From positions 4,572 to 68,571 of the forward strand of contig JAZNXL010000015.1 in NCBI GenBank assembly GCA_045593905.1: DNA of 64,000 nucleotides. The letters run 5' to 3'. The stretch's first letter is position 1; each line of letters opens with the position of its first letter. Both the position numbers and the translations under genes were made by a program. Origin of the DNA: Eubacteriales bacterium (GTDB lineage Bacteria; Bacillota; Clostridia; Oscillospirales; QAKW01). The notes under the pieces are model-generated. The model saw only the letters and a list, made by a program, of their open reading frames with translations. It was not told the DNA's origin and made no database searches. Shown here in pieces: positions 759 to 57,957 of the stretch.

Positions 759-3700
759 ATTGTAAGTTTTGTAAAAACTCTTCCATGCGCTCTATTACCG
801 TCTTGCCGTTTGGGCGTATGGTAACGTACGGCTTTTCACCGGGGGTAAACATCATACCCGAGCCGTAAATTGCCTGCAAGCGAATAAGCAGGTTTTCGTC
901 AACACTGTTAAAGAAAAATACAATGTTATCGGCGCGTTGCTTAATGTCAAAAATATTAAGGCTGCGCGCCATATTGCGTATAAGTGAAATACGCATAAGG
1001 TTTATAACGCTCTCGGGCGGAGCTTTAAACCTGTCGGTAAGCTCGTCGAGAGTATCTAAAAAACCATCGTGGTTTTTAATAGCGGCAATTTTTTTATAAA
1101 CGTCAATTCGGGTGCGCTCGCTCGTAATATACGTTTTTGGAATAAACGCGCTTACCGAAATATCAATGGTACAGTCCGACTTTGTTTCGGGCTCAAGACC
1201 TTGCTCGGTCAAAATTACGTTTTTGAGTATCTCCATATAGGTATCGTACCCGACAACGCTCATATTACCGTGCTGACGCTCGCCCAGAAGCGAGCCTGCG
1301 CCACGAATTTCGAGGTCGCGCATTGCAATTTTAAGACCTGCGCCAAACTCGGTAAACTCTTTAATGGTAACAAGGCGCTTTGTTGCAATTTCGCTGGGGT
1401 TTTTGTCCTTTTTATAGGTAAGGTACGCATACGCCCTGCGGCTGCTTCTGCCAACACGGCCGCGAATTTGATGCAGCTGCGCAAGTCCCATTCTATCGGC
1501 ATCTTCAATAATAAGTGTGTTTGCAAACGAAACGTCAATACCCGTTTCAATAATGGTGGTGCAAAGTAAAATATCCACCTCGTGACTCAGCACGGCTTCC
1601 CAGGCTTTTTCAATCTCGGCAGCGCTCATTTTACCGTGCGCCGTCATAATACGCGCCTCTGGGATAGCAATACTTAAGCGTGTTGCAATACTGTCGAGCG
1701 CCTCAATATCGTTTTTAAGATAAAAAACGCATCCATTACGACGCATTTCGCGTGTAATTGCCTGGGTTACAATATCAAAATTATACTCAAGCACATAAGT
1801 CATAACAGGCAACCTGTCAAGCGGTGCTTCTTCAATAATTGAAATATCGCGTATGCCCGACATTGCCATATTAAGAGTACGCGGAATAGGTGTTGCGCTC
1901 ATTGAAAGCACGTCGACACCGAGAGCTAGCTCTTTTATTTTTTCTTTGTGCTTAACGCCAAAGCGTTGCTCCTCGTCAACAATGAGCAGTCCGAGGTCTA
2001 AAAACTTAACGTCTTTTTGCAAAAGCCTGTGAGTGCCAATAACAATGTCAATCTCGCCGCTCTCAAGCTCTTTACAAATTTGCGATTGCTGTTTTTTTGT
2101 CTTAAACCGAGAGAGCGATGCAACCTTAACAGGAAAGCCTTTAAAACGCTTTGCAACGGTGTTAAAGTGTTGCTCGGCAAGTATTGTGGTCGGCACTAAA
2201 ATTGCAACCTGCTTTGAGTCCATAACCGCCTTAAACGCGGCACGCAGTGCCACCTCGGTTTTACCAACACCAACGTCACCGCAAAGCAACCTATCCATAG
2301 GATACGGCTTTTCCATATCCGCCTTTATCTCGCGTGCGCAAGCAATCTGGTCTTCGGTTTCTTCGTATTCAAAGCGTTGCTCAAACTCGTTTTGCCAATC
2401 GGTATCGGCAGAAAATGCAAAGCCTTTTGCACTAAGGCGCTTTGCGTAAAGCTCAATAAGCTCGCGCGCCAAAACCTCAGATTCTTTTTTTACCTTGCTC
2501 TTTGCCTTTTCCCAGGCCGATGTACCAAGGCGGGTAAGCTTTACCTTTGAGGTATCTGCACCAATGTATTTTGAAATAAGGTCAAGCTGAGGGCAGGGGA
2601 CATAAAGCGTGTCGCCCTTATCGTAGCCAATAACAATATAGTCTTTTGTAACACCGCCCACCGTCATTTGCTTAATGCCGTTATATATGCCGATGCCGTG
2701 GGCGTTGTGAACAACAAGGTCGCCTATTTCAATATCGTCAAAGCTCTTTATTTTTTCGCCCGCCTGCTTTTTAGCGCGTTTAACCGACGGCTTTTTCTTT
2801 GCCGCAACATCGCTTAAAAGTACAAGCTTTGCGTTTTCAAACACAAGGTTTAGCGCAATATCGCTAACAGTTACAGTAACGTTTTTAGTACTGACACCCG
2901 CTTCGTCAAGCGCCTCTTTTACAACCTTTGCGCGCTCGGTTGTTGATGCGGTAATAACACAGCTGTAGCCGCCCTTAACATAGTCTGCAACTGTGAGCGC
3001 ACTTTCTTTTCCTATAAATTCACTTACCGATTGCGATAAAATGTTGGCATCGGTCAGTGCCGAAAGCTTTTGTGATGCAGTTGGCTTTAGCGCCGAAAAC
3101 AAATAGGTATCTTTTACAAAATGAGTCAGCAACTCGTCATAGCTTAAATAGTAACTGCCGTTTGCAATAAAGGTGCCGTGCAGGGCGCACTGCTCTACGT
3201 TTTGGTTAAACTGCCACTCTAAAAATTCGCATCTTGACTTAATTTGCGACTGCTCTAACACAAACACGAGCGGGTTGTCGACGTAGTCAAAAATCGTGAA
3301 AATTTTGGGGTAAATAAGCGGTATATATTTATCAATCGCAACACGCATACCGCTGTTTAATGCCTCAATATCTTTTTCAATATCGTGGTGCGGTTTTTGT
3401 GCTTTTAATATATCTAAAAGCTCGGTATCGCTCACATACGGGCTTTTATTAAGCGGTGTAATTTTTACCTGTTCGCATTGTTCGGTGCGGCGTTGTGATA
3501 TAACGTCAAAATAGCTTATGCGTTCTATATCGGTATCAAAAAACTCAATTCGAACAGGCGCATCGCTACCGCCGACAAACACGTCAACAATATCGCCCCT
3601 GCGTGAAAACGAGCCTGCGCCTTCGACCATATCAAACATAGAATATCCCATTTTGATAAGGCTGTCGCAAAGCGCATCAAGCGAGGTACTGTCGCCCGCT

Positions 3701-4101
3701 TTAATTGTAATGGCTTTTTGTGCGTTTTGGGGTGCAGGGCGGGGGAAGGTGAGCGCATCAACTGTTGCAATTACCATATCAAACTCGCCCGAGTGAATTT
3801 GCTCAAGCGCCGCCATACTCTCGCCGTCACCGCTAACGGCAACGCCTACGTCAAAGTTAAACTCGCCGCCGTAAATTACAGGCTGTTTTCGTTTAAAGAG
3901 CGCAGCAAAAAGCGAGGATATTTGACCAAGGTCGCAGGTATTATCTGCAACAAATATCCCCTTTTTATTATGTTTTTGGGTTAAACAGTAGGCGGCAACC
4001 GCCGATGCGTACGAGTCAAGCCCGTACACCGCCGAGGGTAACTCGGCAGGCGGCGGCAAACCAATGTCGCCAAGCAGTTTATAAAGGTTAAAATCAGCCA
4101 T
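757..4101 (-). CDS. mfd: transcription-repair coupling factor Mfd
   Basis: About 1110 aa with helicase Walker A GDVGVGKTEVALRAAF and DEEQRFGV, plus the CarD-like segment IEIGDLVVHNAHGIGIY. Start set at MADFNLYK (ATG 4101), because the longer ORF would run through the end of pth. Confidence 0.93.
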   Translation of the reverse strand: MADFNLYKLLGDIGLPPPAELPSAVYGLDSYASAVAAYCLTQKHNKKGIFVADNTCDLGQISSLFAALFKRKQPVIYGGEFNFDVGVAVSGDGESMAALEQIHSGEFDMVIATVDALTFPRPAPQNAQKAITIKAGDSTSLDALCDSLIKMGYSMFDMVEGAGSFSRRGDIVDVFVGGSDAPVRIEFFDTDIERISYFDVISQRRTEQCEQVKITPLNKSPYVSDTELLDILKAQKPHHDIEKDIEALNSGMRVAIDKYIPLIYPKIFTIFDYVDNPLVFVLEQSQIKSRCEFLEWQFNQNVEQCALHGTFIANGSYYLSYDELLTHFVKDTYLFSALKPTASQKLSALTDANILSQSVSEFIGKESALTVADYVKGGYSCVITASTTERAKVVKEALDEAGVSTKNVTVTVSDIALNLVFENAKLVLLSDVAAKKKPSVKRAKKQAGEKIKSFDDIEIGDLVVHNAHGIGIYNGIKQMTVGGVTKDYIVIGYDKGDTLYVPCPQLDLISKYIGADTSKVKLTRLGTSAWEKAKSKVKKESEVLARELIELYAKRLSAKGFAFSADTDWQNEFEQRFEYEETEDQIACAREIKADMEKPYPMDRLLCGDVGVGKTEVALRAAFKAVMDSKQVAILVPTTILAEQHFNTVAKRFKGFPVKVASLSRFKTKKQQSQICKELESGEIDIVIGTHRLLQKDVKFLDLGLLIVDEEQRFGVKHKEKIKELALGVDVLSMSATPIPRTLNMAMSGIRDISIIEEAPLDRLPVMTYVLEYNFDIVTQAITREMRRNGCVFYLKNDIEALDSIATRLSIAIPEARIMTAHGKMSAAEIEKAWEAVLSHEVDILLCTTIIETGIDVSFANTLIIEDADRMGLAQLHQIRGRVGRSSRRAYAYLTYKKDKNPSEIATKRLVTIKEFTEFGAGLKIAMRDLEIRGAGSLLGERQHGNMSVVGYDTYMEILKNVILTEQGLEPETKSDCTIDISVSAFIPKTYITSERTRIDVYKKIAAIKNHDGFLDTLDELTDRFKAPPESVINLMRISLIRNMARSLNIFDIKQRADNIVFFFNSVDENLLIRLQAIYGSGMMFTPGEKPYVTIRPNGKTVIERMEEFLQNLQ

Positions 4102-4678
4102 TATACATATTTCTCGCTTTGTCGAGCTGACCTGCAAAGAGAAGGTTACAAATGTCGCCTGTTTTTTTAGCGGCATCTTCAACGCTCTTTAGCTCGTCAG
4201 CGCTGAATTTTGACAGCACCCAGTCTTTTAAATCGTACTCGGGGTGCGGCTTTTTGCCAACACCAATTTTAATACGCAAAAACTGTTCGCTGTTTAAATG
4301 CTTTATAATATCGTACACGCCGTTGTGACCGCCGTCAGAGCCTTTGGGGCGAATGCGTATTTTACCCGCATCGAGCGATACATCGTCGTATATAACAATA
4401 AAATTAGTAACAGGAATTTTAAAAAAGCGCATAACCTCGGCAATGGCGCCGCCGCTTAAGTTCATATAGGTTTGCGGTTTTATAATATAAATTTCTTTAT
4501 CACCGCTTACCGCCTTAAAAAGCTGGGCGTTTGCTCTTGTTCTTGTAGCCGATGCTGAGTAAAATTTTACAAGCTCGTCGGCGCAAATAAACCCTGCGTT
4601 ATGGCGCGTGTTTTCGTACTTCGAGCCGGGGTTGCCAAGCCCTGCAATAAGATAACGCTGTTTAGTCTTGAATAGCAT
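4094..4678 (-). CDS. pth: peptidyl-tRNA hydrolase
   Basis: GLGNPGSKYENTRHNAGF signature, about 194 aa, in the canonical pth-mfd order. Confidence 0.93.
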   Translation of the reverse strand: MLFKTKQRYLIAGLGNPGSKYENTRHNAGFICADELVKFYSASATRTRANAQLFKAVSGDKEIYIIKPQTYMNLSGGAIAEVMRFFKIPVTNFIVIYDDVSLDAGKIRIRPKGSDGGHNGVYDIIKHLNSEQFLRIKIGVGKKPHPEYDLKDWVLSKFSADELKSVEDAAKKTGDICNLLFAGQLDKARNMYNG

Positions 4679-4808
4679 TTTCTTCTCCGTCGTCTTTATA
4701 AATTATTTCAATTGTTTCTTTGTCAAAGGGTGTGTTGCAGTATACACAAAAATCAACCTCAAACGGCTGAACTGTGTTGCATATAGGGCATTTTAAATAT
4801 TTTTCCAT
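4662..4808 (-). CDS. candidate 48-aa zinc-ribbon small protein (below the ORF-track cutoff)
   Basis: Hand translation gives MEKYLKCPICNTVQPFEVDFCVYCNTPFDKETIEIIYKDDGEENAIQD, with a CxxC...CxxC pair. Its ATG shares one nt with the TGA of the upstream ABC gene (ATGA). It ends 17 nt inside pth. Confidence 0.4.
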   Translation of the reverse strand: MEKYLKCPICNTVQPFEVDFCVYCNTPFDKETIEIIYKDDGEENAIQD

Positions 4809-6526
4809 CATCTGAACTGATAACTGTAATAGTTTTTGTAAATTCCGTTTTCGTTTTGTAAGAGTGTGTCGTGTGTGCCGCGCTCAACAATACCTGTTTT
4901 GTCAACAACTACAATCTCGTCGGCATTTTTAACAGTCGAAAGCCTGTGTGCAACTACCACAACGGTGCGCCCCTTTGCAAGCTCGTCGAGTGATTTTTGA
5001 ATAAGCATTTCGGTTGCGTTGTCAAGAGCGCTTGTAGCCTCGTCAAGAATAAGAATTGACGGGTTTTTAAGGAATATACGCGCAATCGAAATACGTTGCT
5101 TTTGACCGCCCGAAAGCTTTATTCCGCGCTCGCCAACGTTGGTGTTATAGCCGTTTTCAAGGGTCATAATGTAGTCATGAATGTTGGCTTTTTTAGCTGC
5201 TTCAATTATTGCCTCGTCACTTGCATCAAGGTCGCCGTAGGCTATGTTTTCACGGATAGTTCCGTTAAACAAAAACACGTCTTGCGACACAATGCCAATG
5301 TTAGACCTGAGTGATGAGAGTGCTATGTCTTTTACGTTATTGCCGTCAAGCAAAATTTCGCCCTCGTCAATCTCGTAAAACCTTGGTATAAGGTTGCAAA
5401 TGGTGGTTTTGCCGCCGCCCGAGGGACCTACAAGCGCGAGTGTTTTACCCGACTCGATGTTTAAGCTTAATTTATCAATAATGTTTTTGCCCTCGTCGGT
5501 TGACTCGTAGGCAAACGAAACGTTTTTAAACTCGATGTTACCTTCGATTTTTTCTAATTTGATTTTACCGATGTCGGTTTCGGGGGCTTTGTCAATGATT
5601 TCGCAAAAACGCTTAAAGCCTGTCATACCCTCTTGAAGCTGCTCAAAGAGCGATACAAACCTGCGGATAGGGTTTAAAAACATACTTATGTATAAAAGAT
5701 ATGCGGTAAATTCGCCAATATTGATTTTACCGTAGTAAAAGAACAGCGCACCTGCAACAAGCACTACAAGGTATAAAAAGTCAATAAAAAACGACATTGA
5801 CGAGTGGAACTTTGCCATTTCTAAAAGCGCCTTGCCTCTGTATTTTTTTAGTAGTTCGTTTTCTTTATCAAACTTTTTGTTTTCGTGTGTGGCGGCGGTG
5901 TAGGCACGCGATACGCGAATACCCGAAATTGCCGTTTCAATGTTTGCGTTAACCTCGGCAACCTGTTCTCTGCTTTTTCTAAAAGCGGTCATCATATTAC
6001 CGCGCATAAGCACCGAAAACAAAATAATAAACGGCACCGATGCAAATACAATAAGTGTCAGCGTTAGGTTAATTGACGAAAGCATAATAAACGAGCCAAT
6101 AAACATAAGCACCGATAAAAACAGGTCTTCGGGACCGTGGTGCGCAAGCTCAGATACCTCGTTTAAGTCGTTAATAAGCCGCGACATAATACTGCCGGTC
6201 TTGTTTTCGTCATAGTATGAAAAGGGTAGCTTTTGTAAATGCCTGAAAAGCTCTTTTCGCATATCTGCCTGCATACGAATACCAACAACGTGACCGTAGT
6301 AGCAAACAACAAAGTTAAATAAATACTTTAAAAGATAAATTACAAGCAGTGCGACTGCCCACAAAATTATCATTTGTAAATTTTTTGACGGCACGTACTT
6401 GTTAATAATATCTTTTGCAATTACAGGGTAAAACAGGTCGCAGCCGGCAATTAAAACAGCGCAAACCATATCAATTATGAATAACCGCAGATGCGATTTG
6501 TAGTATTTAATAAAGCGTAAAATCAT
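4808..6526 (-). CDS. ABC transporter, fused permease/ATPase (MsbA/exporter type)
   Basis: N-terminal six-TM-like region. Walker A GPSGGGKTT, signature LSGGQKQR, Walker B ILILDEATSALD. ATG at 6526 lies 8 nt after a GGAGGG RBS; the track start at 6529 is TTG. Confidence 0.9.
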   Translation of the reverse strand: MILRFIKYYKSHLRLFIIDMVCAVLIAGCDLFYPVIAKDIINKYVPSKNLQMIILWAVALLVIYLLKYLFNFVVCYYGHVVGIRMQADMRKELFRHLQKLPFSYYDENKTGSIMSRLINDLNEVSELAHHGPEDLFLSVLMFIGSFIMLSSINLTLTLIVFASVPFIILFSVLMRGNMMTAFRKSREQVAEVNANIETAISGIRVSRAYTAATHENKKFDKENELLKKYRGKALLEMAKFHSSMSFFIDFLYLVVLVAGALFFYYGKINIGEFTAYLLYISMFLNPIRRFVSLFEQLQEGMTGFKRFCEIIDKAPETDIGKIKLEKIEGNIEFKNVSFAYESTDEGKNIIDKLSLNIESGKTLALVGPSGGGKTTICNLIPRFYEIDEGEILLDGNNVKDIALSSLRSNIGIVSQDVFLFNGTIRENIAYGDLDASDEAIIEAAKKANIHDYIMTLENGYNTNVGERGIKLSGGQKQRISIARIFLKNPSILILDEATSALDNATEMLIQKSLDELAKGRTVVVVAHRLSTVKNADEIVVVDKTGIVERGTHDTLLQNENGIYKNYYSYQFR

Positions 6527-6628: not shown

Positions 6629-7540
6629 GTGGCAGGCTACATTTTTTCTTCAAACCAAATACCTATGATGAGCGTTCCGCGTTCTATTGCCGACAGGTTT
6701 TTGCCTATAGCAACAGGTGCGCAAATTAAGGTGCTCTTATGCCTTATCCGCTTTGAAGATATGCCGCTTACAAAAGCTGATATTGCAAAGCAGTGCAACC
6801 TAAACGAAGATGATGTAAACGATGCCATTAAATTCTGGATTAAAGAGCAGGTGCTAATTCGCCGCGCAAACTCACTCGTTTTATCGGGCGCAGTAAGCGC
6901 ACAACCGCAAACGCTTCCGCGCTATAATGCCGATAATATTCTTGATAAAAAAACAAACGACAGCGCGTTTTCTTTTCTTATTGCCGAAATTGAGCGCATA
7001 CTCGGAAAAACACTAAACCAAAACGATGCTTCGGTTATTCTTGCGATGTATGACCATATGGGCTTTGGCGACGACCTTATTATCCACCTTATTAATTACT
7101 GCGTGTCAATCGGTAAGTCAAACTTCAGATATATCGAAAAAGTAGCGCTCGATTGGTTCGACAGGGGAGTAGATACCTTTGAAAAAGCCGAAGCACTAAT
7201 TCGCGCACTCGAGAAAAAGGCGCGTCTTGAAACTGCAGTTATGGGCTATTTTGGTATTGAAAGAGCACTTTCTAAAAAAGAAAAGGAATATATCGAAAGC
7301 TGGGAGCAAACTCTTGGTATGTCGCTTGAAATGATTAAAGAGGCGTACGAGGTGTGTATCGACAAAAAAGGTGCGCTCAAGTTTGCATATATAAACGGTA
7401 TACTTGTCGACTGGCACAAAAAAGGCTTTAAATCGGTATCTGATATTAAAACCGATGTAAAACCTGTGTCAAACGAAAAGAGCTATAACAGTTTAGATAT
7501 TGAAAACGCAATCTTAAACAGTATGGTAGGTGAAAATTAG
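6629..7540 (+). CDS. DnaD/DnaB(Bsu)-family replication initiation protein
   Basis: GTG start 9 nt after AAGGAG. C-terminal DnaD-like repeat regions (YIEKVALDWFDRGVDTFEKAE; YINGILVDWHKKG). Sits immediately upstream of a DnaI-like loader, as in Firmicute dnaB-dnaI operons. Confidence 0.7.
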   Translation: MAGYIFSSNQIPMMSVPRSIADRFLPIATGAQIKVLLCLIRFEDMPLTKADIAKQCNLNEDDVNDAIKFWIKEQVLIRRANSLVLSGAVSAQPQTLPRYNADNILDKKTNDSAFSFLIAEIERILGKTLNQNDASVILAMYDHMGFGDDLIIHLINYCVSIGKSNFRYIEKVALDWFDRGVDTFEKAEALIRALEKKARLETAVMGYFGIERALSKKEKEYIESWEQTLGMSLEMIKEAYEVCIDKKGALKFAYINGILVDWHKKGFKSVSDIKTDVKPVSNEKSYNSLDIENAILNSMVGEN

Positions 7541-48678: not shown

Positions 48679-48687
48679 TTTATATGT

Positions 48688-48714
48688 AAAAAGCACCCTT
48701 CGGGGTGCTTTTTA
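48688..48714. terminator. bidirectional terminator (right end of the GH28 gene, end of the kinase operon)
   Basis: Stem gcaccc-ttcg-gggtgc with flanking A and T runs. Confidence 0.8.
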
Positions 48715-49416
48715 TATACTTTTTTTGAGTTGTAATGCAGTTTGATACCTGTTGTCCGGGTTTATGCTTGTACACTTGGAAACAATTCTTCCAAGATGAC
48801 CGTCGGCAATTTTTTCGGTAGGGTGCTTTCCTGTTAATAACACATTCAGTAATACGCCTGCGGCATAAATATCAGTTCGTTCGTCGCTCTCTTTAAGTCC
48901 TAACTGTTCAGGGGGAGCGTAGCCAACGGTACCCATTACCTCGGTGTCGTGACTTTTTTGTGAAATTCTGCGTGCGGCACTAAAATCAATTAACACTATA
49001 CGTCCGTTTTTATCTACCATAACGTTTTCAGGCTTAATGTCGCGATGTACTATACCGTTTTGATGTAATACCTGCATTGCATTACAAAGCTGACGTAAAA
49101 TTTTTTTAACGCCGTTTTTGCGGTATTTACCTGTTTGCGCAACCTCGGCAACTGTTAAGCCGTTAATGTATTCTTCTAAAACAATAACTCCGTCACTACA
49201 GTTGTAAATATCATAAACTGCAGGAAGGTTTACGCACCTTCCGTTACAAAGAGTTTGATATACATCGTTTTGCTTTTTTAGTATGCGCAAAACGTAGTCC
49301 TGCTCGTTTTTGCGGTGCCTTACACGAAATACTCTATTCTCGTTTCTGTCTGAAAGAAGAGATACTTTTATAAAAAAATCCCAAAGCAGTTGTAGTTGTT
49401 GCTCGCAAGTGTTCAT
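48712..49416 (-). CDS. stand-alone Ser/Thr protein kinase domain (atypical)
   Basis: HRDIKPENVMV catalytic loop, DFS (instead of DFG), GTVGYAPPE. No GxGxxG loop recognisable, and no TM or sensor domain. ATG 49416 follows a GAGGAG RBS and forms ATGA with the upstream stop. Confidence 0.8.
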   Translation of the reverse strand: MNTCEQQLQLLWDFFIKVSLLSDRNENRVFRVRHRKNEQDYVLRILKKQNDVYQTLCNGRCVNLPAVYDIYNCSDGVIVLEEYINGLTVAEVAQTGKYRKNGVKKILRQLCNAMQVLHQNGIVHRDIKPENVMVDKNGRIVLIDFSAARRISQKSHDTEVMGTVGYAPPEQLGLKESDERTDIYAAGVLLNVLLTGKHPTEKIADGHLGRIVSKCTSINPDNRYQTALQLKKSI

Positions 49417-50471
49417 CCGTTCCACTCCTCATACACCGCATCATAGTAGCTACTTGCAATATTGCGATAATAACGAAAATCACGGTTGTTACAGTTATAT
49501 GAACAATGAATAGTAAGTGCTGCGTTTCTTTTTTCTTTGGACGCAAACGCCTGTATATCAACGTGTATTGAATTTGCGCCTAAATATATATCGGTTAAGT
49601 TAACGCAGCCTGAAAAAGCAAATTCCCAAACCGTTCTTACCGTTTCGGGAAGATAAACCTGTTTTACGGTTGTTTTAACATTTTCACCATTAAAAGCTGA
49701 ACGCTGAATAGCAATTACTTTTTTTCCGTCTATTGTTGACGGTACACGGTATATGCCGTCAGCGGCGGGGGTTGAAACGCCTGTAATTACAACGCAATTA
49801 TCCACATTCGAGGTTACAAGGTAATCGTCAATAGCGTACTCGGCATCTCTATAGGTGTAAACTGCAGTAGTTGTAACAGGGGTGTCTTGCTGCTCTTGTT
49901 TAGGGGTGTCTTGTTGTTCTTGATTGGGGGTATCTTGCTGTTCCTGATTAGGAGTATCTTGTTGTTGCTGATTAGGAGTATCTTGTTGTTCTTGATTGGG
50001 AGTATCTTGTTGGTCAGGAGAGACTTTGACAGGTTTTTCAGGGTCGGTTTGCGGTGTGGTAACTGTGGTATCCGGCACAGTTGTATTTGGACCGCCTACA
50101 TAAATTTCTGAACCACCGTCAGATTTATTTTGCTTATTATTCGAGTTTGGTGTTTTATTATTTTGGTTGGCATTATTGCCGTTTGATTGTTGTGACTCTG
50201 AATTTGAATCAGTATTTTTTGTTGTATCTTCAACGTTTGTTTGTTGTTGGTCAGGTTGTTTTGGCGGCTTTACAGTTTGTTTAGGCAAAAAAATAAGCGC
50301 TGTAATGCCTATAACACAAGCAAAAACGGCACAACAAATAATCAGTACCAATCGCCGTGGGCGATTAAGCGCTGCAATTAATTGTGCCTTAGGCTCAAGC
50401 TCTTTCATGCAATATAAGCATACTCGCGCATTTTCTTCAATTGTAGCATTACAATAGGGGCAGTTTTTCAT
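49413..50471 (-). CDS. zinc-ribbon / TM / Q-P-T-rich linker / BspA-type leucine-rich-repeat protein
   Basis: N-terminal CPYC...CLYC, one TM segment, a low-complexity linker with QQDTPNQE repeats, and a C-terminal LRR-like segment (IQRSAFNG...LPETVRTVWEFAFSGCVNLTDIYLGANSIHVDIQAFA). Confidence 0.65.
   Translation of the reverse strand: MKNCPYCNATIEENARVCLYCMKELEPKAQLIAALNRPRRLVLIICCAVFACVIGITALIFLPKQTVKPPKQPDQQQTNVEDTTKNTDSNSESQQSNGNNANQNNKTPNSNNKQNKSDGGSEIYVGGPNTTVPDTTVTTPQTDPEKPVKVSPDQQDTPNQEQQDTPNQQQQDTPNQEQQDTPNQEQQDTPKQEQQDTPVTTTAVYTYRDAEYAIDDYLVTSNVDNCVVITGVSTPAADGIYRVPSTIDGKKVIAIQRSAFNGENVKTTVKQVYLPETVRTVWEFAFSGCVNLTDIYLGANSIHVDIQAFASKEKRNAALTIHCSYNCNNRDFRYYRNIASSYYDAVYEEWNG
49881..50018. 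repeat. 24-nt tandem repeat, about 5.75 copies, in-frame (QQDTPNQE)n
   Basis: Units ggtgtcttgytgytcttgwttrgg read directly from the sequence. They lie inside the linker of the ZnR-LRR gene. Confidence 0.9.
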
Positions 50472-50890
50472 CCTAACGTTTCCAAATCGTAATCAAATAA
50501 TAATTCGTTTATTTCTATTACAGATAGCTTTTTACAAATACCAAACAACACTATGCTGTCAAACGGGAGCTTAACATAAAGGGTAGGGTAGCCTGCGCAT
50601 TTTAAAAGTGTTTGCACCTCATCTAAAGAGAGTTCCATTCCAATTGCAAGGCATAATAGCTTATTTCGTTCAGGCACACGGATACCCGAAAAAATCTGAT
50701 AAGCATAAACCTCTGAAAGCTCGGCTTTTTTAATAACCTCAGACTTTTTTAAGCCCTTTTGCTCAAGTAATGATGCAAGCATCTGCGAAAGCGTGCTGGT
50801 TACCATATAATCTTTGTTTTCGTTGTAAAAAGTTTGAAAACTCGGGCATAACCCCAATTCTTCAACTATTTTAGAAGTGTCTTTTTTCAT
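50468..50890 (-). CDS. XRE-like HTH-domain protein (140 aa)
   Basis: HTH-like core KKSEVIKKAELSEVYAYQIFSGIRVPERNKLL. Start set at MKKDTSK (ATG 50890). Its stop overlaps the downstream start (ATGA). Confidence 0.6.
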   Translation of the reverse strand: MKKDTSKIVEELGLCPSFQTFYNENKDYMVTSTLSQMLASLLEQKGLKKSEVIKKAELSEVYAYQIFSGIRVPERNKLLCLAIGMELSLDEVQTLLKCAGYPTLYVKLPFDSIVLFGICKKLSVIEINELLFDYDLETLG

Positions 50891-50914
50891 AAACCCACAC
50901 ATCCTTAAACATCT

Positions 50915-50968
50915 TATGCTTTTAGCATAACATAATCGACAAATTTTTTCAACTATGCTGTCAGCATA
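50915..50968. promoter_or_regulatory. two 15-bp palindromic operator candidates, TATGCT-N3-AGCATA
   Basis: Palindromes at 50915-50929 and 50954-50968 have identical half-sites, with centres 39 bp apart. They bracket or overlap the promoter below. Confidence 0.6.
50924..50952 (-). promoter_or_regulatory. candidate promoter of the HTH-LRR-kinase operon
   Basis: On the minus strand: TTGAAA, 17 nt, TATGCT. The -10 hexamer is itself a half-site of the proximal palindrome. Confidence 0.45.
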
Positions 50969-51015
50969 GGACATTATTAAACTGCCGATTTATAATATTT
51001 AAAGGATGAGGGGTT

Positions 51016-51276
51016 TTATATACGTTCTACATCCTGTGCAGAAAGTATTTGGGAAATTGGAACTTCCAAGCTTTTTGAAAAGATTATTAAATCAATGTCG
51101 GTTACAAACCTTTCACCGTTTTCAACCCGACGAATAAAGTAATGGTCTACGTCAAATCCCAATAATTGCATTTTTTCTGCCAGCTTCCGCTGGGATAGCT
51201 TTTTGCTTTTGCGTATTTGCATTATACGCTTTCCGCAAAGGTTGTTGGTGCCGTCTGCGGCTTTAATCTTAAACAT
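51016..51276 (-). CDS. XRE-family HTH transcriptional regulator (86 aa)
   Basis: LSQRKLAEKMQLLGFDVDHYFIRRVENGER HTH_3-type motif. GAGGGA RBS 6 nt upstream of the ATG. Confidence 0.85.
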   Translation of the reverse strand: MFKIKAADGTNNLCGKRIMQIRKSKKLSQRKLAEKMQLLGFDVDHYFIRRVENGERFVTDIDLIIFSKSLEVPISQILSAQDVERI

Positions 51277-51291
51277 AACAAATCCCTCATT

Positions 51292-51366
51292 TTTGTTGAA
51301 TACTATTTACTTTTTTATTATTGTATGATAAAATACAATATATTTTGGTGAATAGTATTCAACAAA
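51292..51366. promoter_or_regulatory. perfect 16-bp inverted repeat pair flanking the divergent promoter region
   Basis: tttgttgaatactatt (51292-51307) and aatagtattcaacaaa (51351-51366), 43 nt apart. The interval contains a TGaTAAAAT extended -10 (51326-51334). Confidence 0.55.
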
Positions 51367-51431
51367 ATAAGGGGTTTTATTTATACCCAAAAAATATTTG
51401 CAGCCGAAAAATCGGCAGAAAGAGGTTTATT

Positions 51432-51935
51432 ATGGGATTTATGGAGAAATTGGGTGCAACACTCGCAACAAAATACGGTGAGGTTACCGAAGGCAGACAC
51501 GAGGGCTGTGTTGTTGCTTTGGGCAATCCGCCAGATAAAAAGGTTAGTGCTACCAACAAGTTTACTCAAATTATATTCCTTGAAGACAAAGAAACAAAGG
51601 GTAGATACGATATTGGTTCACAGGCTAAAGCATTACACTTTGTTGAAAGCGACCACGACAGCGTGACAGTAGTTATTGATTTTGCTGACGGCGATAGCTC
51701 TACAATAGTTCTTAGCACACCAAAAGAAGACAGTGGCGTTGTATCGCTTATTAAGGGTCAGCTCGGTTTAAAATCGGCAACCAAGGTGAATAAAGACGGT
51801 ACTACTCAAACTGATAACGATGTTAAGTATCATAATATAAAAACCTTCTTGTTAACATTTGTTCATAACTATGCAGGAGATGATGCTATAAAGGTTCGTG
51901 ATTATTTAGATAGCATCGGTTTGTTAAAAAAATAA
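51432..51935 (+). CDS. hypothetical protein (167 aa), no family recognised
   Basis: ATG 51432 lies 6 nt after the AGAAAGAGG RBS; the track ORF from 51321 has no RBS. Predicted soluble. Confidence 0.6.
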   Translation: MGFMEKLGATLATKYGEVTEGRHEGCVVALGNPPDKKVSATNKFTQIIFLEDKETKGRYDIGSQAKALHFVESDHDSVTVVIDFADGDSSTIVLSTPKEDSGVVSLIKGQLGLKSATKVNKDGTTQTDNDVKYHNIKTFLLTFVHNYAGDDAIKVRDYLDSIGLLKK

Positions 51936-51956
51936 TTAACGAAAGGACATAAAGCA

Positions 51957-52502
51957 ATGGAGCTTATTAACAACGAAGCAAAATGGTTTTTGTCAGAACA
52001 AGGCAAAAAAGCATTTGACAACTGTAAAAATCTCGAGGAACGTTCGGTATTTATTTATTCGTATTTAAAAAAGATTTCGGTAAACTCTTTAAATAAAGAT
52101 TCTTTTTTGTTCAGAATTGCGTTTTTGTTAGCAAACTCTGTTCACTCATCAAAGGCTGAATATGCTAACTATCCCGAACTTCTTGACGAAAGTAAAAACC
52201 CTTTTGTTGCTTATGTTAAAAATGCAAAAAAGGTTTATTCAATTCAAATTAATTACTGTATTCTTTTATCAATCTTACATAAAATAGCTAATCCTTTTAA
52301 TACAGATGACTGGGTATATAATCAAGCGTTTGTTGAATCAAAGGCGTATATTGACAAAGCAAAGGAACTTGAAAAATGTTTTATTGAAGATACCAAAGCT
52401 CGTGTGATTGACAATAGTGTTTATGATATTGATGAGGCTTTGCGTGATATTCAAATTGAAATCGCCTGGCTTTTTATTCTTCAAGATAAGGAGGATAAAT
52501 AA
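51957..52502 (+). CDS. hypothetical protein (181 aa), probably all-alpha, no family recognised
   Basis: AAAGGAC RBS. AT-rich coding sequence. The stop directly abuts the next start. Confidence 0.6.
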   Translation: MELINNEAKWFLSEQGKKAFDNCKNLEERSVFIYSYLKKISVNSLNKDSFLFRIAFLLANSVHSSKAEYANYPELLDESKNPFVAYVKNAKKVYSIQINYCILLSILHKIANPFNTDDWVYNQAFVESKAYIDKAKELEKCFIEDTKARVIDNSVYDIDEALRDIQIEIAWLFILQDKEDK

Positions 52503-53591
52503 ATGAACGATAACAAAGAGTTAATTGGTCAGTTAGAGCAACTTGACCAGCTTATCGACGAGAATGAAAATTTAAACTTTTATATTGAGCACGGTGCAGC
52601 AAGAGAAGCTCTTGAACAAATTGCAGTTATTCGCGAAAAACGCGGACAGGCTCCAAAAGCGCCCTCTGTTTACACCACAATGCCGGTTTATCCGTTAAAC
52701 GAAAGCGTGTATTTACCGCTCGAAAAATCATATAATCTTGCTAAAAAAATATTTTTTGGTGCTTTGGGCGTAACAGTTCTTATGGCTATTATATATATGA
52801 TTAGTAAAGCTGATTTTTTCAATACACTTTCCACAATTGGAATTATGGGCTCAATTGTTTCGGGTATCTATCACTCTAAAATAAAAGGTCAATATAAAGA
52901 CAAAAAGAAAACATATGACGAGTCTGTTAAAACCTTTGAAAGAACTATGGGTGCTTTTCGTAAAGGACTTGCAAACCTTGACCAAGAAAAGCAAACTGCT
53001 TTAGACGAACTAAATGCATATAAACAATTAAACGCTGTTTGTTATGAAGAATATACAGTTGCTTTTAACCAGTATTCTGACAACATTGATAACGCAAAAG
53101 CTATATATGCTGTTAATTCGGACCAAATTAACAGCAGTGAGGTTTTACCAGTTGATTACCATCATCTTGTTAAACCCATAATTTCAATTTTAAAAAGTGG
53201 TAGAGCGGACACATATAAAGAAGCTCTTAACTTAGCAATTGACGAGGAACGTCAAGAAAGAGAAGCTGCAGCTCGCCGTGAGGCAGAGGCTCGCCGCCAA
53301 GCCGAAGAAGAGCGCCGTACCGAAATTATGAGACGTCAGGCAGAAGAAGAACGCCGTCATAACGAGCAAATGGAGCGTCAACAGGCTGAACAGGCAAGAG
53401 AAGCTGCCCGTCAACAACAAGCAGCACAACGCCAACAGGCAGAGCAGGCAAGAGAGGCTGCGCGTCAACAAAGTCGTCAAGAAAGTATAGGCAGAAGTAA
53501 GTGTCATAGTTGTGCCAATTACAGCCATTGCCCATCTCATGTAAAAAAGAGTGGTGCAGGACTTACTTGCGGTGGCTATAGACCAAGATAA
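52503..53591 (+). CDS. hypothetical membrane protein with coiled-coil, E/R/Q-rich repeat and Cys/His-rich tail (362 aa)
   Basis: Two TM helices (about residues 82-125). Duplicated RQQAEQAREAARQQ. C-terminal CHSCANYSHCPSH...CGGY. Confidence 0.65.
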   Translation: MNDNKELIGQLEQLDQLIDENENLNFYIEHGAAREALEQIAVIREKRGQAPKAPSVYTTMPVYPLNESVYLPLEKSYNLAKKIFFGALGVTVLMAIIYMISKADFFNTLSTIGIMGSIVSGIYHSKIKGQYKDKKKTYDESVKTFERTMGAFRKGLANLDQEKQTALDELNAYKQLNAVCYEEYTVAFNQYSDNIDNAKAIYAVNSDQINSSEVLPVDYHHLVKPIISILKSGRADTYKEALNLAIDEERQEREAAARREAEARRQAEEERRTEIMRRQAEEERRHNEQMERQQAEQAREAARQQQAAQRQQAEQAREAARQQSRQESIGRSKCHSCANYSHCPSHVKKSGAGLTCGGYRPR

Positions 53592-53602
53592 CCGTATAAC
53601 AA

Positions 53603-53633
53603 AAAGAACGCAATTTTATTGCGTTCTTTTTTT
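53603..53633 (+). terminator. intrinsic terminator ending the orphan operon
   Basis: Stem gaacgcaat / attgcgttc followed by ttttttt. Confidence 0.8.
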
Positions 53634-53667
53634 GATTGTGCTATCATAAAATCAAGAGGTGATTAAA

Positions 53668-54390
53668 ATGATTAAATACCAAATAGAAGGCGGAAATTTA
53701 CCTGTTGTAATTTGTAATTTGCAACAAGGTCAAACGCTTGCTTGCGAAAGCGGTGCTATGAGTTGGATGTCGCCTAATATGAAAATGGATACCAATGCGG
53801 GCGGCGGTATAAAAAAAGCACTCGGCAGGCTTTTTAGCGGCGAGTCGATATTTTTAAACGAGTACACAGCCGAGGGCGGCGAGGGTATGATTGCGTTTGC
53901 ATCAAGCTTTCCCGGCAGCATTATTCCGTATCAGGTTACCGAGGGTAATGGCATTATTGTTCAAAAACGTGGCTTTTTAGCAATGGAAAAAGGCTTGGAA
54001 CTTTCGGTATATTTTCAAAAAAAATTAAGCAGAGGCTTTTTTGGCGGCGAAGGCTTTATTATGCAACAAATACAGGGTAACGGCCTTGTGTTTTTAGAAA
54101 TTGACGGTCACTGTAAAGAATATGACCTTGCAGCAGGTGAGAGCATTATTGTTGACACAGGTTACCTTGCCGCAATGACCGATAGTTGTACAATGGATGT
54201 TGAAATGGTAAAAGGTGCAAAAAACATATTCCTTGGCGGCGAGGGACTTTTTCACACCAAAATAACAGGCCCCGGTAAAGTATATATCCAGTCAATGCCA
54301 ATTATTAACATTGCCCAGCGCCTAACACCTTATCTTAACTTAAACTCTGACAACGACGGCGGCGGAATTAACATTAAATTCGGCGACTAA
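53668..54390 (+). CDS. AIM24/DUF124 (TIGR00266-like) family protein
   Basis: MIKYQIEGGNLPVV..., SGAMSWM, GEGFIMQQIQGNG and GPGKVYIQSMP match AIM24-family blocks. ATG 53668 follows an AGAGGTG RBS. Confidence 0.78.
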   Translation: MIKYQIEGGNLPVVICNLQQGQTLACESGAMSWMSPNMKMDTNAGGGIKKALGRLFSGESIFLNEYTAEGGEGMIAFASSFPGSIIPYQVTEGNGIIVQKRGFLAMEKGLELSVYFQKKLSRGFFGGEGFIMQQIQGNGLVFLEIDGHCKEYDLAAGESIIVDTGYLAAMTDSCTMDVEMVKGAKNIFLGGEGLFHTKITGPGKVYIQSMPIINIAQRLTPYLNLNSDNDGGGINIKFGD

Positions 54391-57171: not shown

Positions 57172-57957
57172 TTATATATTTTTATTCTTTGCTCGGTATT
57201 GGTTAGGGGATAGCCCCGTTCGCTTTTTAAAGATTTGGCAAAAATACGAAACGCTCGAAAACCCGCACTTTTCTGCTACCATATTAATTGGACTATCGGT
57301 TGTAACAAGCATTGTTTTTGCCGCTGCAATACGCGTTTGCAGCAAATATTCCATAAGTGTTAGTCCGAATGTGTTTTTAAACTTGCGGCAAAAATGGTAT
57401 TTGCTTATATGTGCCTTTTTACAAATATCATCAAGCGTTAACGGTAATTGGTAACTGTTGTTTATGTACTCTAAAACTTTAGTCAGGTTATCGCCAAGAT
57501 ATGTGTTTTTTTGTACAACATACTGTTTTAAATAAAGCATAAGTTCGAAAAAGCAGTTAATAAAAACGGCTTTGTTGCCTTTGTTTTCAAAAGCCTTTTT
57601 ATAAATGCTCTCAACGGTAGAGTGTAACTCGTTGGGTATTTTTGCATACACAACTGAGCTGTTTAAAAAAGTATCGGTAAACTCACTGTCGTCGCTCGTA
57701 AGCTCGAGTATGCCGTTTACAATTTTTTGGTTGGCAAAAATTTTACTTCTATCGTAAACATCGGGGTCTGACGGCATTGTATAATGGCGTTTAGAGCTGT
57801 TAATAAAGCACAAAACACCTTTTTTGATAGGATAAATATTGTCTTGAAATACAATTTTTCCGCCGTCAGAATAAAAGTAAATTATCATATTAAGCTTTGG
57901 ATAGTTCCAAATTTTATAAAGCGGGTCGCGCCCAATTTCGTGGTGAATAATATCCAT
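57172..57957 (-). CDS. AraC-family transcriptional regulator
   Basis: Cupin-like N-terminus. C-terminal HTH pair (LDDICKKAHISKYHFCRKFK; VAEKCGFSSVSYFCQIFKK). Confidence 0.85.
   Translation of the reverse strand: MDIIHHEIGRDPLYKIWNYPKLNMIIYFYSDGGKIVFQDNIYPIKKGVLCFINSSKRHYTMPSDPDVYDRSKIFANQKIVNGILELTSDDSEFTDTFLNSSVVYAKIPNELHSTVESIYKKAFENKGNKAVFINCFFELMLYLKQYVVQKNTYLGDNLTKVLEYINNSYQLPLTLDDICKKAHISKYHFCRKFKNTFGLTLMEYLLQTRIAAAKTMLVTTDSPINMVAEKCGFSSVSYFCQIFKKRTGLSPNQYRAKNKNI

Follow-up and report, generated by a model that had tools for sequence, protein, structure and literature searches.

We report a seven-gene module in a 64,000-nt stretch of DNA (the window) from a Eubacteriales bacterium (assembly GCA_045593905.1, contig JAZNXL010000015.1, positions 4,572 to 68,571 of the forward strand). 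Three of its genes, hereafter g1, g2 and g3, had been singled out from the letters of the DNA as an orphan operon under XRE control. They are not a self-contained system and prove to be the output half of a larger unit, in which XRE, H140, ZnLRR and STK are encoded on the minus strand and g1, g2 and g3 on the plus strand; the whole spans about 48683 to 53631 and is thus larger than the 51432-53591 first noted (Table 1). Our favoured reading, to which we give a probability of roughly 0.5, is that g1-g2-g3 is the regulated output operon of a sensor-switch-effector module of uncultured gut Oscillospirales. We hold the architecture of the module and its predicted regulation with good confidence, and the biological role of its output far more tentatively. 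The module is undescribed and the three output families are unannotated in the libraries tested, in keeping with the original prediction of an undescribed system: no known family was matched, and no description of an LRR/kinase/XRE or LRR/WYL module was found in the literature searched.

Two regulators and their predicted operators

The three output genes are tightly packed, with 21 nt between g1 and g2 and a direct TAA-ATG junction between g2 and g3 (52500-52505). As originally predicted, they have one promoter (51306..51334) and one terminator (53601..53631). We place the g1 start at ATG 51432 and not at the upstream TTG 51321, because a near-invariant N-terminus, MGFME, is found in 61 homologues and the ribosome-binding site GAGG (51422-51425) lies 6 nt upstream of this ATG.

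A promoter scan of the region between XRE and g1 returned two promoters, P_g1 and P_xre, which face each other across 51306..51352 with overlapping -10 boxes, and the hexamers of both are conserved in an intergenic alignment of 14 loci (relative loci that we fetched are labelled L0xx). Two palindromic operators lie over these promoters. O1 overlaps the -35 box of P_g1, 18 bp from the XRE start codon, while O2 overlaps the -35 box of P_xre and the beginning of the g1 leader. They share the general form TGkTGAATA-s-TATTCAmCA, their centres are 52 bp apart (five helical turns), and the core pattern occurs three times in the window against 0.2 expected. The XRE-g1 intergenic DNA is conserved across the 14 loci although the g1-g3 proteins are only 25-72% identical. 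Every fetched locus with an XRE gene carries the O1/O2 pair at a spacing of 51-52 bp, and the pair is absent from the module loci that have no XRE gene (L005, L009, L017, L018 and L032). Because the operator pair is present or absent strictly with the XRE gene, we assign O1 and O2 to XRE, and we infer that XRE represses both P_g1 and P_xre. The earlier proposal of XRE control is strengthened by this co-occurrence and by the conservation of the two operators.

XRE itself is a small protein (85-86 aa across loci, 77-88% identical) with an invariant N-terminus, MFKIKAADGTNN, and a second invariant stretch, DHYFIRRVENGERFVTDIDL. It matches HTH_3 just above threshold (PF01381, E=4.5e-5; score 23.9 bits, cut-off 23) and the 'control protein' models of PADLOC at E=3e-7. 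In L044 the XRE gene (7066..7330) is split into two overlapping open reading frames (ORFs), through decay or an assembly error. The third occurrence of the operator core in the window, a near-match that differs at one position (TGAATAATATCCA, 57944..57956), falls across the beginning of a minus-strand AraC-like gene (57172..57957) and could be either chance or a second target.

The second regulator, H140, is 140 aa long in the relatives too and 67-77% identical across loci. It gives a weak Pfam match to HTH_31/HTH_3, is distantly XRE-like and has no match in PDB or NCBIfam. H140 is present in every kinase-arm locus, those without XRE included. A perfect palindrome abuts the -35 box of its promoter; in the form CTATGCTG-N-CAGCATAG it is kept in 14 XRE-containing and four XRE-less loci, in the latter between H140 and g1. 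The exact palindrome occurs once in the window, yet 11 of 100 shuffles matched it at three mismatches or fewer, so that its support comes from conservation and not from the count. It is most simply read as the presumed operator of H140. Taken together, the two conserved sets of palindromes support a two-regulator switch, with XRE and H140 as its predicted components.

A 4-7-bp GC-rich hairpin stands in the g1 leader of the window and in those of 11 other loci, as scored from single-sequence folds of the 12 leaders; its stems differ from locus to locus (GCCGA/TCGGC, ACCGG/CCGGT, CTGGC/GCCAG and others). A riboswitch or other known RNA in this leader was considered and rejected (best Rfam match E=0.4). 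The sequence (A)TGAGGG(G/A)TTT occurs three times around XRE: at the XRE ribosome-binding site (about 51281..51292, minus strand), after O2 on the g1 side (51367..51383) and in antisense orientation right after the XRE stop codon (51006..51022).

A presumed membrane receptor and a Hanks-type kinase in the sensor arm

H140, ZnLRR and STK form one operon and may be coupled in translation, as an ATGA overlap joins H140 to ZnLRR and another joins ZnLRR to STK. ZnLRR has an N-terminal CxxC...CxxC zinc ribbon, followed by one transmembrane (TM) helix at residues 42-60. A long linker rich in P, Q, T and N leads from there to the C-terminal leucine-rich repeat (LRR) domain, which is of the BspA type (LRR_5); the Pfam matches of ZnLRR, to LRR_5 and Zn_Ribbon_1, are weak. 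With this layout ZnLRR is presumed to be an extracellular sensor. Six 24-nt tandem units (49854..50039) encode QQDTPNQE-type repeats in the presumed extracellular linker, whose length and sequence are highly variable from locus to locus. The ratio of nonsynonymous to synonymous substitution (dN/dS) in the sensor arm is highest in the LRR part of ZnLRR, at 0.43 against 0.03 for STK.

STK is a soluble Hanks-type Ser/Thr kinase made up of the catalytic domain only (Pkinase, E=4e-35; 233-240 aa across loci). Translation of STK probably begins at ATG 49416, in the overlap with the stop codon of ZnLRR; the ORF also has a GTG at 49425. At least 90% of 18 sequences retain the motifs HRDIKPEN, DFS and APPE, and the nearest solved relative is PknB (E=1e-23); against the PASTA-kinase model NF033483 the protein scores 132 bits, where the cut-off is 450. 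Assignment of STK to the PD-T4-6, Stk2 or MADS (MAD6) kinases was rejected, the similarity being that of kinase domains in general and below the NCBIfam cut-offs. In L018 a complete module is immediately preceded (1454..5565) by another H140 paralogue together with a ZnLRR-like gene of 1002 aa, and the sensor pair can thus be duplicated.

The earlier suggestion that g1 or g2 might act as the sensor found no supporting evidence; the sensing parts are encoded on the opposite strand.

The output genes are exchanged as a cassette

Comparisons between close relatives show that the two arms have had separate histories and indicate that g1-g3 is exchanged as a cassette. Between L003 and L013 the identities in the divergent arm are 93% for STK, 89% for ZnLRR, 97% for H140 and 98% for XRE, against 36% for g1, 42% for g2 and 37% for g3. 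L017 and L032 are 96% identical at the nucleotide level in their flanks and 91% in the kinase arm, and where L017 has g1-g2-g3, L032 has a different g1-like gene and a g3 relative of 27% identity; g2 is missing there, and the DNA of the two cassettes shows no similarity. The opposite pattern is seen between L015 and L021, where g3 is 97% identical and STK 64%. Over 153 locus pairs, the Spearman correlation of identities is 0.20 between STK and g3, as against 0.61 between STK and H140 and 0.64 between g2 and g3. When the window is compared with its close relative L042, synonymous divergence is 0.09-0.17 from XRE to g3, 0.53 in H140 and 0.85-1.0 in the flanks.

A Y1 transposase gene lies 700 bp downstream of the cassette in L044.

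Distribution and interchangeable transducers

The hosts of the module are uncultured gut Oscillospirales, namely Faecousia, Acutalibacteraceae, Ca. Fimenecus, 'Eubacteriales' and metagenome-assembled Clostridia genomes from ruminants. The trio is linked to the STK arm in at least 20 loci, and in every long contig examined the XRE-H140-ZnLRR-STK arm lies divergently upstream of it. The genes that flank the module change from genome to genome and are housekeeping genes by Pfam content.

In more distant relatives other regulators take the place of the kinase arm. In L010 a single protein with regions 2 and 4 of an extracytoplasmic function (ECF) sigma factor, a TM helix, a Ser/Thr-rich linker and LRR_5 replaces it; g1-g2-g3 follow directly downstream, and the ectodomain closely resembles that of the ZnLRR in the window. 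Proteins of the type WYL(-WCX)(-LRR_5) flank g2-g3 or a g3 relative in L025, L027 and L039, and a small TM-LRR_5 protein lies upstream of a g3 relative in L035. Winged helix-turn-helix (wHTH)-WYL-WCX proteins beside distant g2-g3 pairs match the WYL 'CRISPR-associated signalling' models of PADLOC. The constant partner is an LRR-bearing regulator, and the transducer (kinase plus helix-turn-helix (HTH) protein, sigma factor or WYL protein) is interchangeable. Because the kinase arm is replaced by sigma-LRR_5 or WYL-LRR proteins in distant relatives, g1-g3 can be taken as the regulated output. A reverse search that started from H140 led to a different pairing: in L057, XRE, the operators, H140, ZnLRR and STK drive an unrelated 244-aa membrane protein.

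Three unannotated protein families

The trio gave nothing above noise in profile searches of Pfam, NCBIfam, PHROGs and PADLOC (the best PADLOC match of g2, E=0.028, is noise; g1 and g3 had nothing significant), and sequence-profile searches of the trio against PDB were empty as well. The best PDB match, to the ATP synthase b subunit (E=0.037), was rejected as a coiled-coil artefact, and PHROG tape-measure matches to g3 were rejected as low-complexity E/R/Q sequence. Twenty-four g3 relatives scanned singly and ten long family members scanned for extra domains also gave nothing. The earlier statement that no family could be assigned therefore holds in all five libraries. The description of the genes as orphans does not: a word-indexed search found 61 homologues of g1, 13 of g2 and 85 of g3, all annotated just as 'hypothetical protein', the 85 g3 relatives being full-length and 27-69% identical. 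An exhaustive profile search with g3 extended the family to 693 clusters (at 50% identity) at E<=1e-3, 129 of them at E<=1e-30 and none annotated. The genes are under purifying selection, with dN/dS of 0.29 (g1), 0.25 (g2) and 0.18 (g3) against a 94%-identical relative.

That the trio consists of chance or decaying reading frames can be dismissed: annotated homologues are lacking and the g3 of L024 and XRE of L044 are split, but hundreds of full-length homologues, dN/dS well below 1, confident AlphaFold2 models and the conservation of gene order, ribosome-binding site, promoter and terminator already refute it.

g3 is predicted to be a hairpin-anchored membrane scaffold that faces the cytoplasm. 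In order it comprises an N-terminal helix (predicted to be cytoplasmic), a two-helix hairpin, a helical arm, a set of conserved motifs and a C-terminal Cys tail. The family-mean hydropathy peaks at residues 85-101 and 103-122, which places the hairpin at about 82-125, and with Lys-rich sequence on either side of it, the two arms should lie in the cytoplasm. Sequence varies in the N-terminal helix, in the hairpin and in the first helical arm. Invariant are Y219, LKSGRADxYKEALNLAIxEER (230-249), QAEEERRHNxxME (279-291) and four Cys. Residues 251-331 are rich in E, R, Q and A (19 K+R, 18 D+E, 17 Q). The tail reads C334-x2-C337-x5-C343-x12-C356 in the window, each Cys being at least 90% conserved, and C-x2-C-x5-C-x6-12-C across the family; all four Cys are found in 178 of 207 full-length members (86%) and the exact CxxCx5C in 169 of 207 (82%). 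Of the original description of g3, the two TM helices, the E/R/Q tract and the four Cys stand, whereas the His residues of the tail are not conserved. The C-x2-C-x5-C spacing resembles that of the Fe-S ligands of FNR, Wbl and EndoIII, a resemblance that is a lead and not a test, and the tail may be a metal or Fe-S knuckle. A 42-nt direct repeat (53376..53417 and 53430..53471, 88% identical) duplicates RQQAEQAREAARQQ inside the E/R/Q region, which differs in length among relatives. The g3 gene of L024 (9379..10444) is split into two overlapping ORFs, by decay or by an assembly error.

g2 is soluble and all-helical. It has a KNPF motif and numerous invariant aromatic residues, and it is paired with g3 even in distant loci. 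Its AlphaFold2 model is confident (predicted local distance difference test (pLDDT) 89, predicted template-modelling (TM) score 0.87), and with Foldseek neither PDB (best E=2) nor BFVD (best E=1.1) yielded a matching fold. g1 is also soluble, with a strongly conserved N-terminal 60 residues, and is modelled (pLDDT 82) as a seven-stranded beta-sandwich followed by C-terminal helices. All of its top Foldseek matches are PH/PTB domains, each of them weak (E=8e-3 to 0.1, TM-score 0.26-0.48), and we tentatively regard the model as PH-like. g1 is facultative, being absent or located after g3 in several loci. Genes of this kind with an MGFF/MGFM N-terminus follow g3 in L052 (2040..2891), where there are two paralogues, L016 (3485..3949), L024 (10488..10955) and L044 (9180..9647).

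A working model and its alternatives

In the model that we favour, XRE dimers on O1 and O2 would hold both promoters shut. The LRR_5 ectodomain of ZnLRR would read a cell-surface signal and relay it through the TM helix and the zinc ribbon to the partner kinase STK and to H140, and STK/H140 signalling would lift the repression. g3 would then enter the membrane through its helical hairpin, leaving both arms on the cytoplasmic side. g2 and the tentatively PH-like g1 would dock on the variable arms to give a complex of the trio at the inner face of the membrane, and a conserved partner or a cofactor could be contacted by the GRAD motif, by the RRHN helix and by the four Cys as a metal or Fe-S knuckle. 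A conflict-type role is suggested by the tight repression that we predict, by the rapid evolution of the ectodomain and by the exchange of cassettes among close relatives, which favours such a role over a housekeeping one. The output may accordingly be an effector or protective device directed against phage or competing bacteria at the inner membrane face, a proposal that we rate somewhat below even odds.

Several observations weigh against this reading. No catalytic or pore-forming domain is recognisable in g1-g3. STK lacks the GxGxxG ATP loop, in the window protein and its relatives alike, and both the substrate of STK and its contact with ZnLRR are conjecture on our part; Thr10 of XRE and Thr13 of g1, both invariant, are candidate phosphorylation sites. 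WYL-LRR proteins without a TM helix indicate that LRR_5 is not always extracellular, and to our knowledge an extracellular sensor is unusual among phage defence systems. Searches for relatives of g3 in INPHARED, PLSDB and IMG/VR were empty, as were those for g1 and g2 in IMG/VR, and a phage or plasmid origin was rejected on this basis. The enrichment in defence islands that the original prediction had anticipated was not seen: among 138 flanking proteins from 23 loci, PADLOC matched only a type I methyltransferase, an E1-E2-like protein and two HTH proteins of a generic kind.

The housekeeping context, the lack of recognisable effector chemistry and the lack of association with defence islands keep a stress or redox role in play. 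The sensor arm would then detect surface damage or a host or dietary cue, and g1-g3 would be a protective scaffold with no part in conflict, in the manner of Psp or Lia, its CxxCx5C tail sensing oxygen or redox state. A cytoplasmic-facing membrane scaffold such as g3, neighbours free of mobile elements, strictly anaerobic hosts and the likeness of the tail to the Fe-S ligands mentioned above would all suit such a role. Psp and Lia are likewise induced operons that place a small membrane anchor and soluble partners at the inner membrane face. Effectors of this type are normally inherited with their regulators, however, and cassette exchange is not known from Psp/Lia; here the cassette is swapped while the regulators remain 89-98% identical. 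No PspA/IM30, LiaI, LiaF or other stress-protein domain was found in g1-g3 or 24 family members with Pfam and NCBIfam, and the Cys tail is missing in 14% of the g3 family. We consider a stress response unlikely.

It is rather improbable that g1-g3 is itself signalling machinery, with g3 as an adaptor that recruits the kinase or the regulators through its GRAD/RRHN/Cys4 end for feedback or anti-repression, and g1 and g2 as modulators. The invariance of residues 216-291 and of the Cys tail across otherwise divergent cassettes would fit a conserved partner, and g3 relatives are nearly always found beside an LRR-containing regulator. Yet the XRE/operator/kinase arm is also paired with the unrelated membrane protein of L057 and with cassettes that have no g2 (L032) or no g1 (L015, L021 and L022), and the sigma-LRR fusion of L010 needs no adaptor and still keeps g1-g3 downstream.

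A toxin-antitoxin or addiction system, in which g3 would be a membrane toxin neutralised by g1 and g2 under an autoregulating, antitoxin-like XRE in the manner of HipB or a C-protein, is very improbable. XRE weakly matches HipB-type and restriction-modification (R-M) controller-protein models, its two operators are predicted to repress tightly and the cassette is mobile; against this, the module was never found on plasmids or phages in the databases searched, comprises seven genes with a membrane sensor and a kinase, has a dispensable g1 and cassettes without g2, and contains no known toxin domain. HipBA was rejected on two counts, STK being a Pkinase/Hanks protein without the HipA fold and two genes lying between STK and XRE.

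Returning to the output-operon model, its boldest form would be a bacterial counterpart of LRR receptor-kinase immunity, in which the fast-evolving LRR ectodomain and its partner kinase would detect a phage or rival cell at the surface, flip the two-repressor switch and induce an exchangeable membrane effector of three proteins, among them one with no structural match (g2) and one with a possible Fe-S or redox tail (g3). We consider this form unlikely; if true, gut Clostridia would possess a defence or competition system of a new class, triggered at the surface and induced at the level of transcription. Should the model hold in general, bacteria would be shown to have an LRR-receptor/Hanks-kinase pathway that is split between proteins, and the two-repressor switch, being portable and of known operator sequence, could serve as a genetic tool for gut Clostridia. 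The model would also define a cassette-swapping effector locus in abundant uncultured gut Oscillospirales that is possibly a new mechanism of defence or competition. A stress-related role would still leave g3 a new family of membrane scaffolds, whose tail might sense redox state. Three unannotated families wired to a recognisable signalling arm offer a concrete entry point for experiments.

Relation to known systems

The sensor arm is most readily compared with the kinases PrkC, PknB and StkP, in which a Hanks catalytic domain is likewise coupled to a ligand-binding domain outside the cell, on a protein that crosses the membrane once, and the output is a change in gene expression, a coupling that we infer for the module. 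Those kinases are single polypeptides with PASTA domains. Here the receptor and the kinase are split and joined only by the ATGA overlap of their genes, the ectodomain is a BspA-type LRR_5, a zinc ribbon forms the cytoplasmic part of the receptor and the glycine-rich loop is missing. In the plant LRR receptor-like kinases FLS2 and EFR, an extracellular LRR is linked through one TM helix to a Ser/Thr kinase on the cytoplasmic side, likewise a member of the Hanks superfamily, and a response is induced. The likeness to the module is by analogy only: the LRR type is unrelated, the polypeptides are split here, the setting is bacterial and nothing outside the kinase fold is taken to be homologous.

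In its predicted logic the XRE switch resembles the CI/Cro switches of phages and the C-protein switches of R-M systems: the HTH_3 protein is small, its paired palindromic operators share one face of the DNA and overlap face-to-face promoters, and autoregulation is probable. Unlike them, the module controls neither lysogeny nor R-M, has a second HTH protein with its own putative operator and a kinase arm, and has no phage context.

Membrane-tethered ECF sigma/anti-sigma signalling by DdvS/DdvA controls a CBASS-CRISPR island (PMC11506125). The arrangement in L010, with g1-g3 behind a protein that combines sigma factor, TM helix and ectodomain, is similar in that an extracytoplasmic cue would be passed to a dedicated output locus. 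The window module differs from ECF systems in having HTH repressors and a kinase and no sigma factor, and in that its outputs are unannotated proteins.

BrxR and CapW are WYL-domain regulators of defence loci, and distant g2-g3 pairs are flanked by wHTH-WYL-WCX proteins; the WYL proteins near g2-g3 differ in being fused to LRR domains, and they are absent from the window module. In the blp locus of Streptococcus pneumoniae, conserved regulatory genes accompany a variable region of bacteriocin and immunity cassettes. The module shares with it a conserved sensing and regulatory arm beside an effector region that is shuffled between close relatives, but it has no secreted peptides, transporters or known immunity proteins, and its sensor is of the LRR/Hanks-kinase type and not a histidine kinase.

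Module boundaries and neighbouring genes

Table 1. Positions of the module genes and their predicted control elements in the window.
Feature	Position	Strand	Description
STK	48712..49416	-	Hanks-type Ser/Thr kinase, about 234 aa
ZnLRR	49413..50471	-	Zn ribbon/TM/LRR_5 protein
H140	50468..50890	-	140-aa HTH protein
XRE	51016..51276	-	86 aa, HTH_3
g1	51432..51935	+	167-aa ORF
g2	51957..52502	+	181-aa ORF
g3	52503..53591	+	362-aa ORF
P_H140	-35 TTGAAA 50952..50947; -10 TATGCT 50929..50924	-	promoter of the H140-ZnLRR-STK operon, -10 with TG; promoter scan
H140-promoter palindrome	50953..50969	-	perfect, CTATGCTG-T-CAGCATAG; presumed H140 operator
P_g1	TTTACT 51306-51311; TAAAAT 51329-51334	+	sigma-70-like, 17-nt spacer, extended -10 (TG); promoter scan
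P_xre	TTCACC 51352-51347; TATCAT 51330-51325	-	16-nt spacer; promoter scan
Operator O1	51294..51312		TGTTGAATA-C-TATTTACTT, imperfect 19-bp palindrome, also within inverted repeat I1
Operator O2	51346..51364		TGGTGAATA-G-TATTCAACA, 19-bp palindrome
Leader hairpin	51403..51416	+	GCCGA-AAAA-TCGGC, just before the g1 ribosome-binding site
g1-g2-g3 terminator	53601..53631	+	14-bp stem and T-run, intrinsic-terminator-like
Module-left hairpin	48683..48718		inverted repeat I14, 16-nt arms, 94% complementary, T-runs on both sides

The terminator behind g3 is the right boundary of the module, because nucleotide identity to L042 drops from 94% to 81% exactly there. On the left, the hairpin sits between the convergent ends of the STK gene and a 730-aa gene and is likely to be both the module boundary and a terminator, probably a bidirectional one. 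No convincing flanking direct repeats that could mark an insertion were found around the module. By eye, the 730-aa protein is pectate-lyase-like in its N-terminal part and GDSL-like in its C-terminal part. On the right, an AIM24-family gene (53659..54390) lies between the g3 terminator and a PMI/ROK gene in the window; it was rejected as a further member of the module, being missing from the closest relative and from all other loci. In L042 the PMI/ROK gene follows g3 directly, and this insertion or deletion falls exactly at the cassette boundary.

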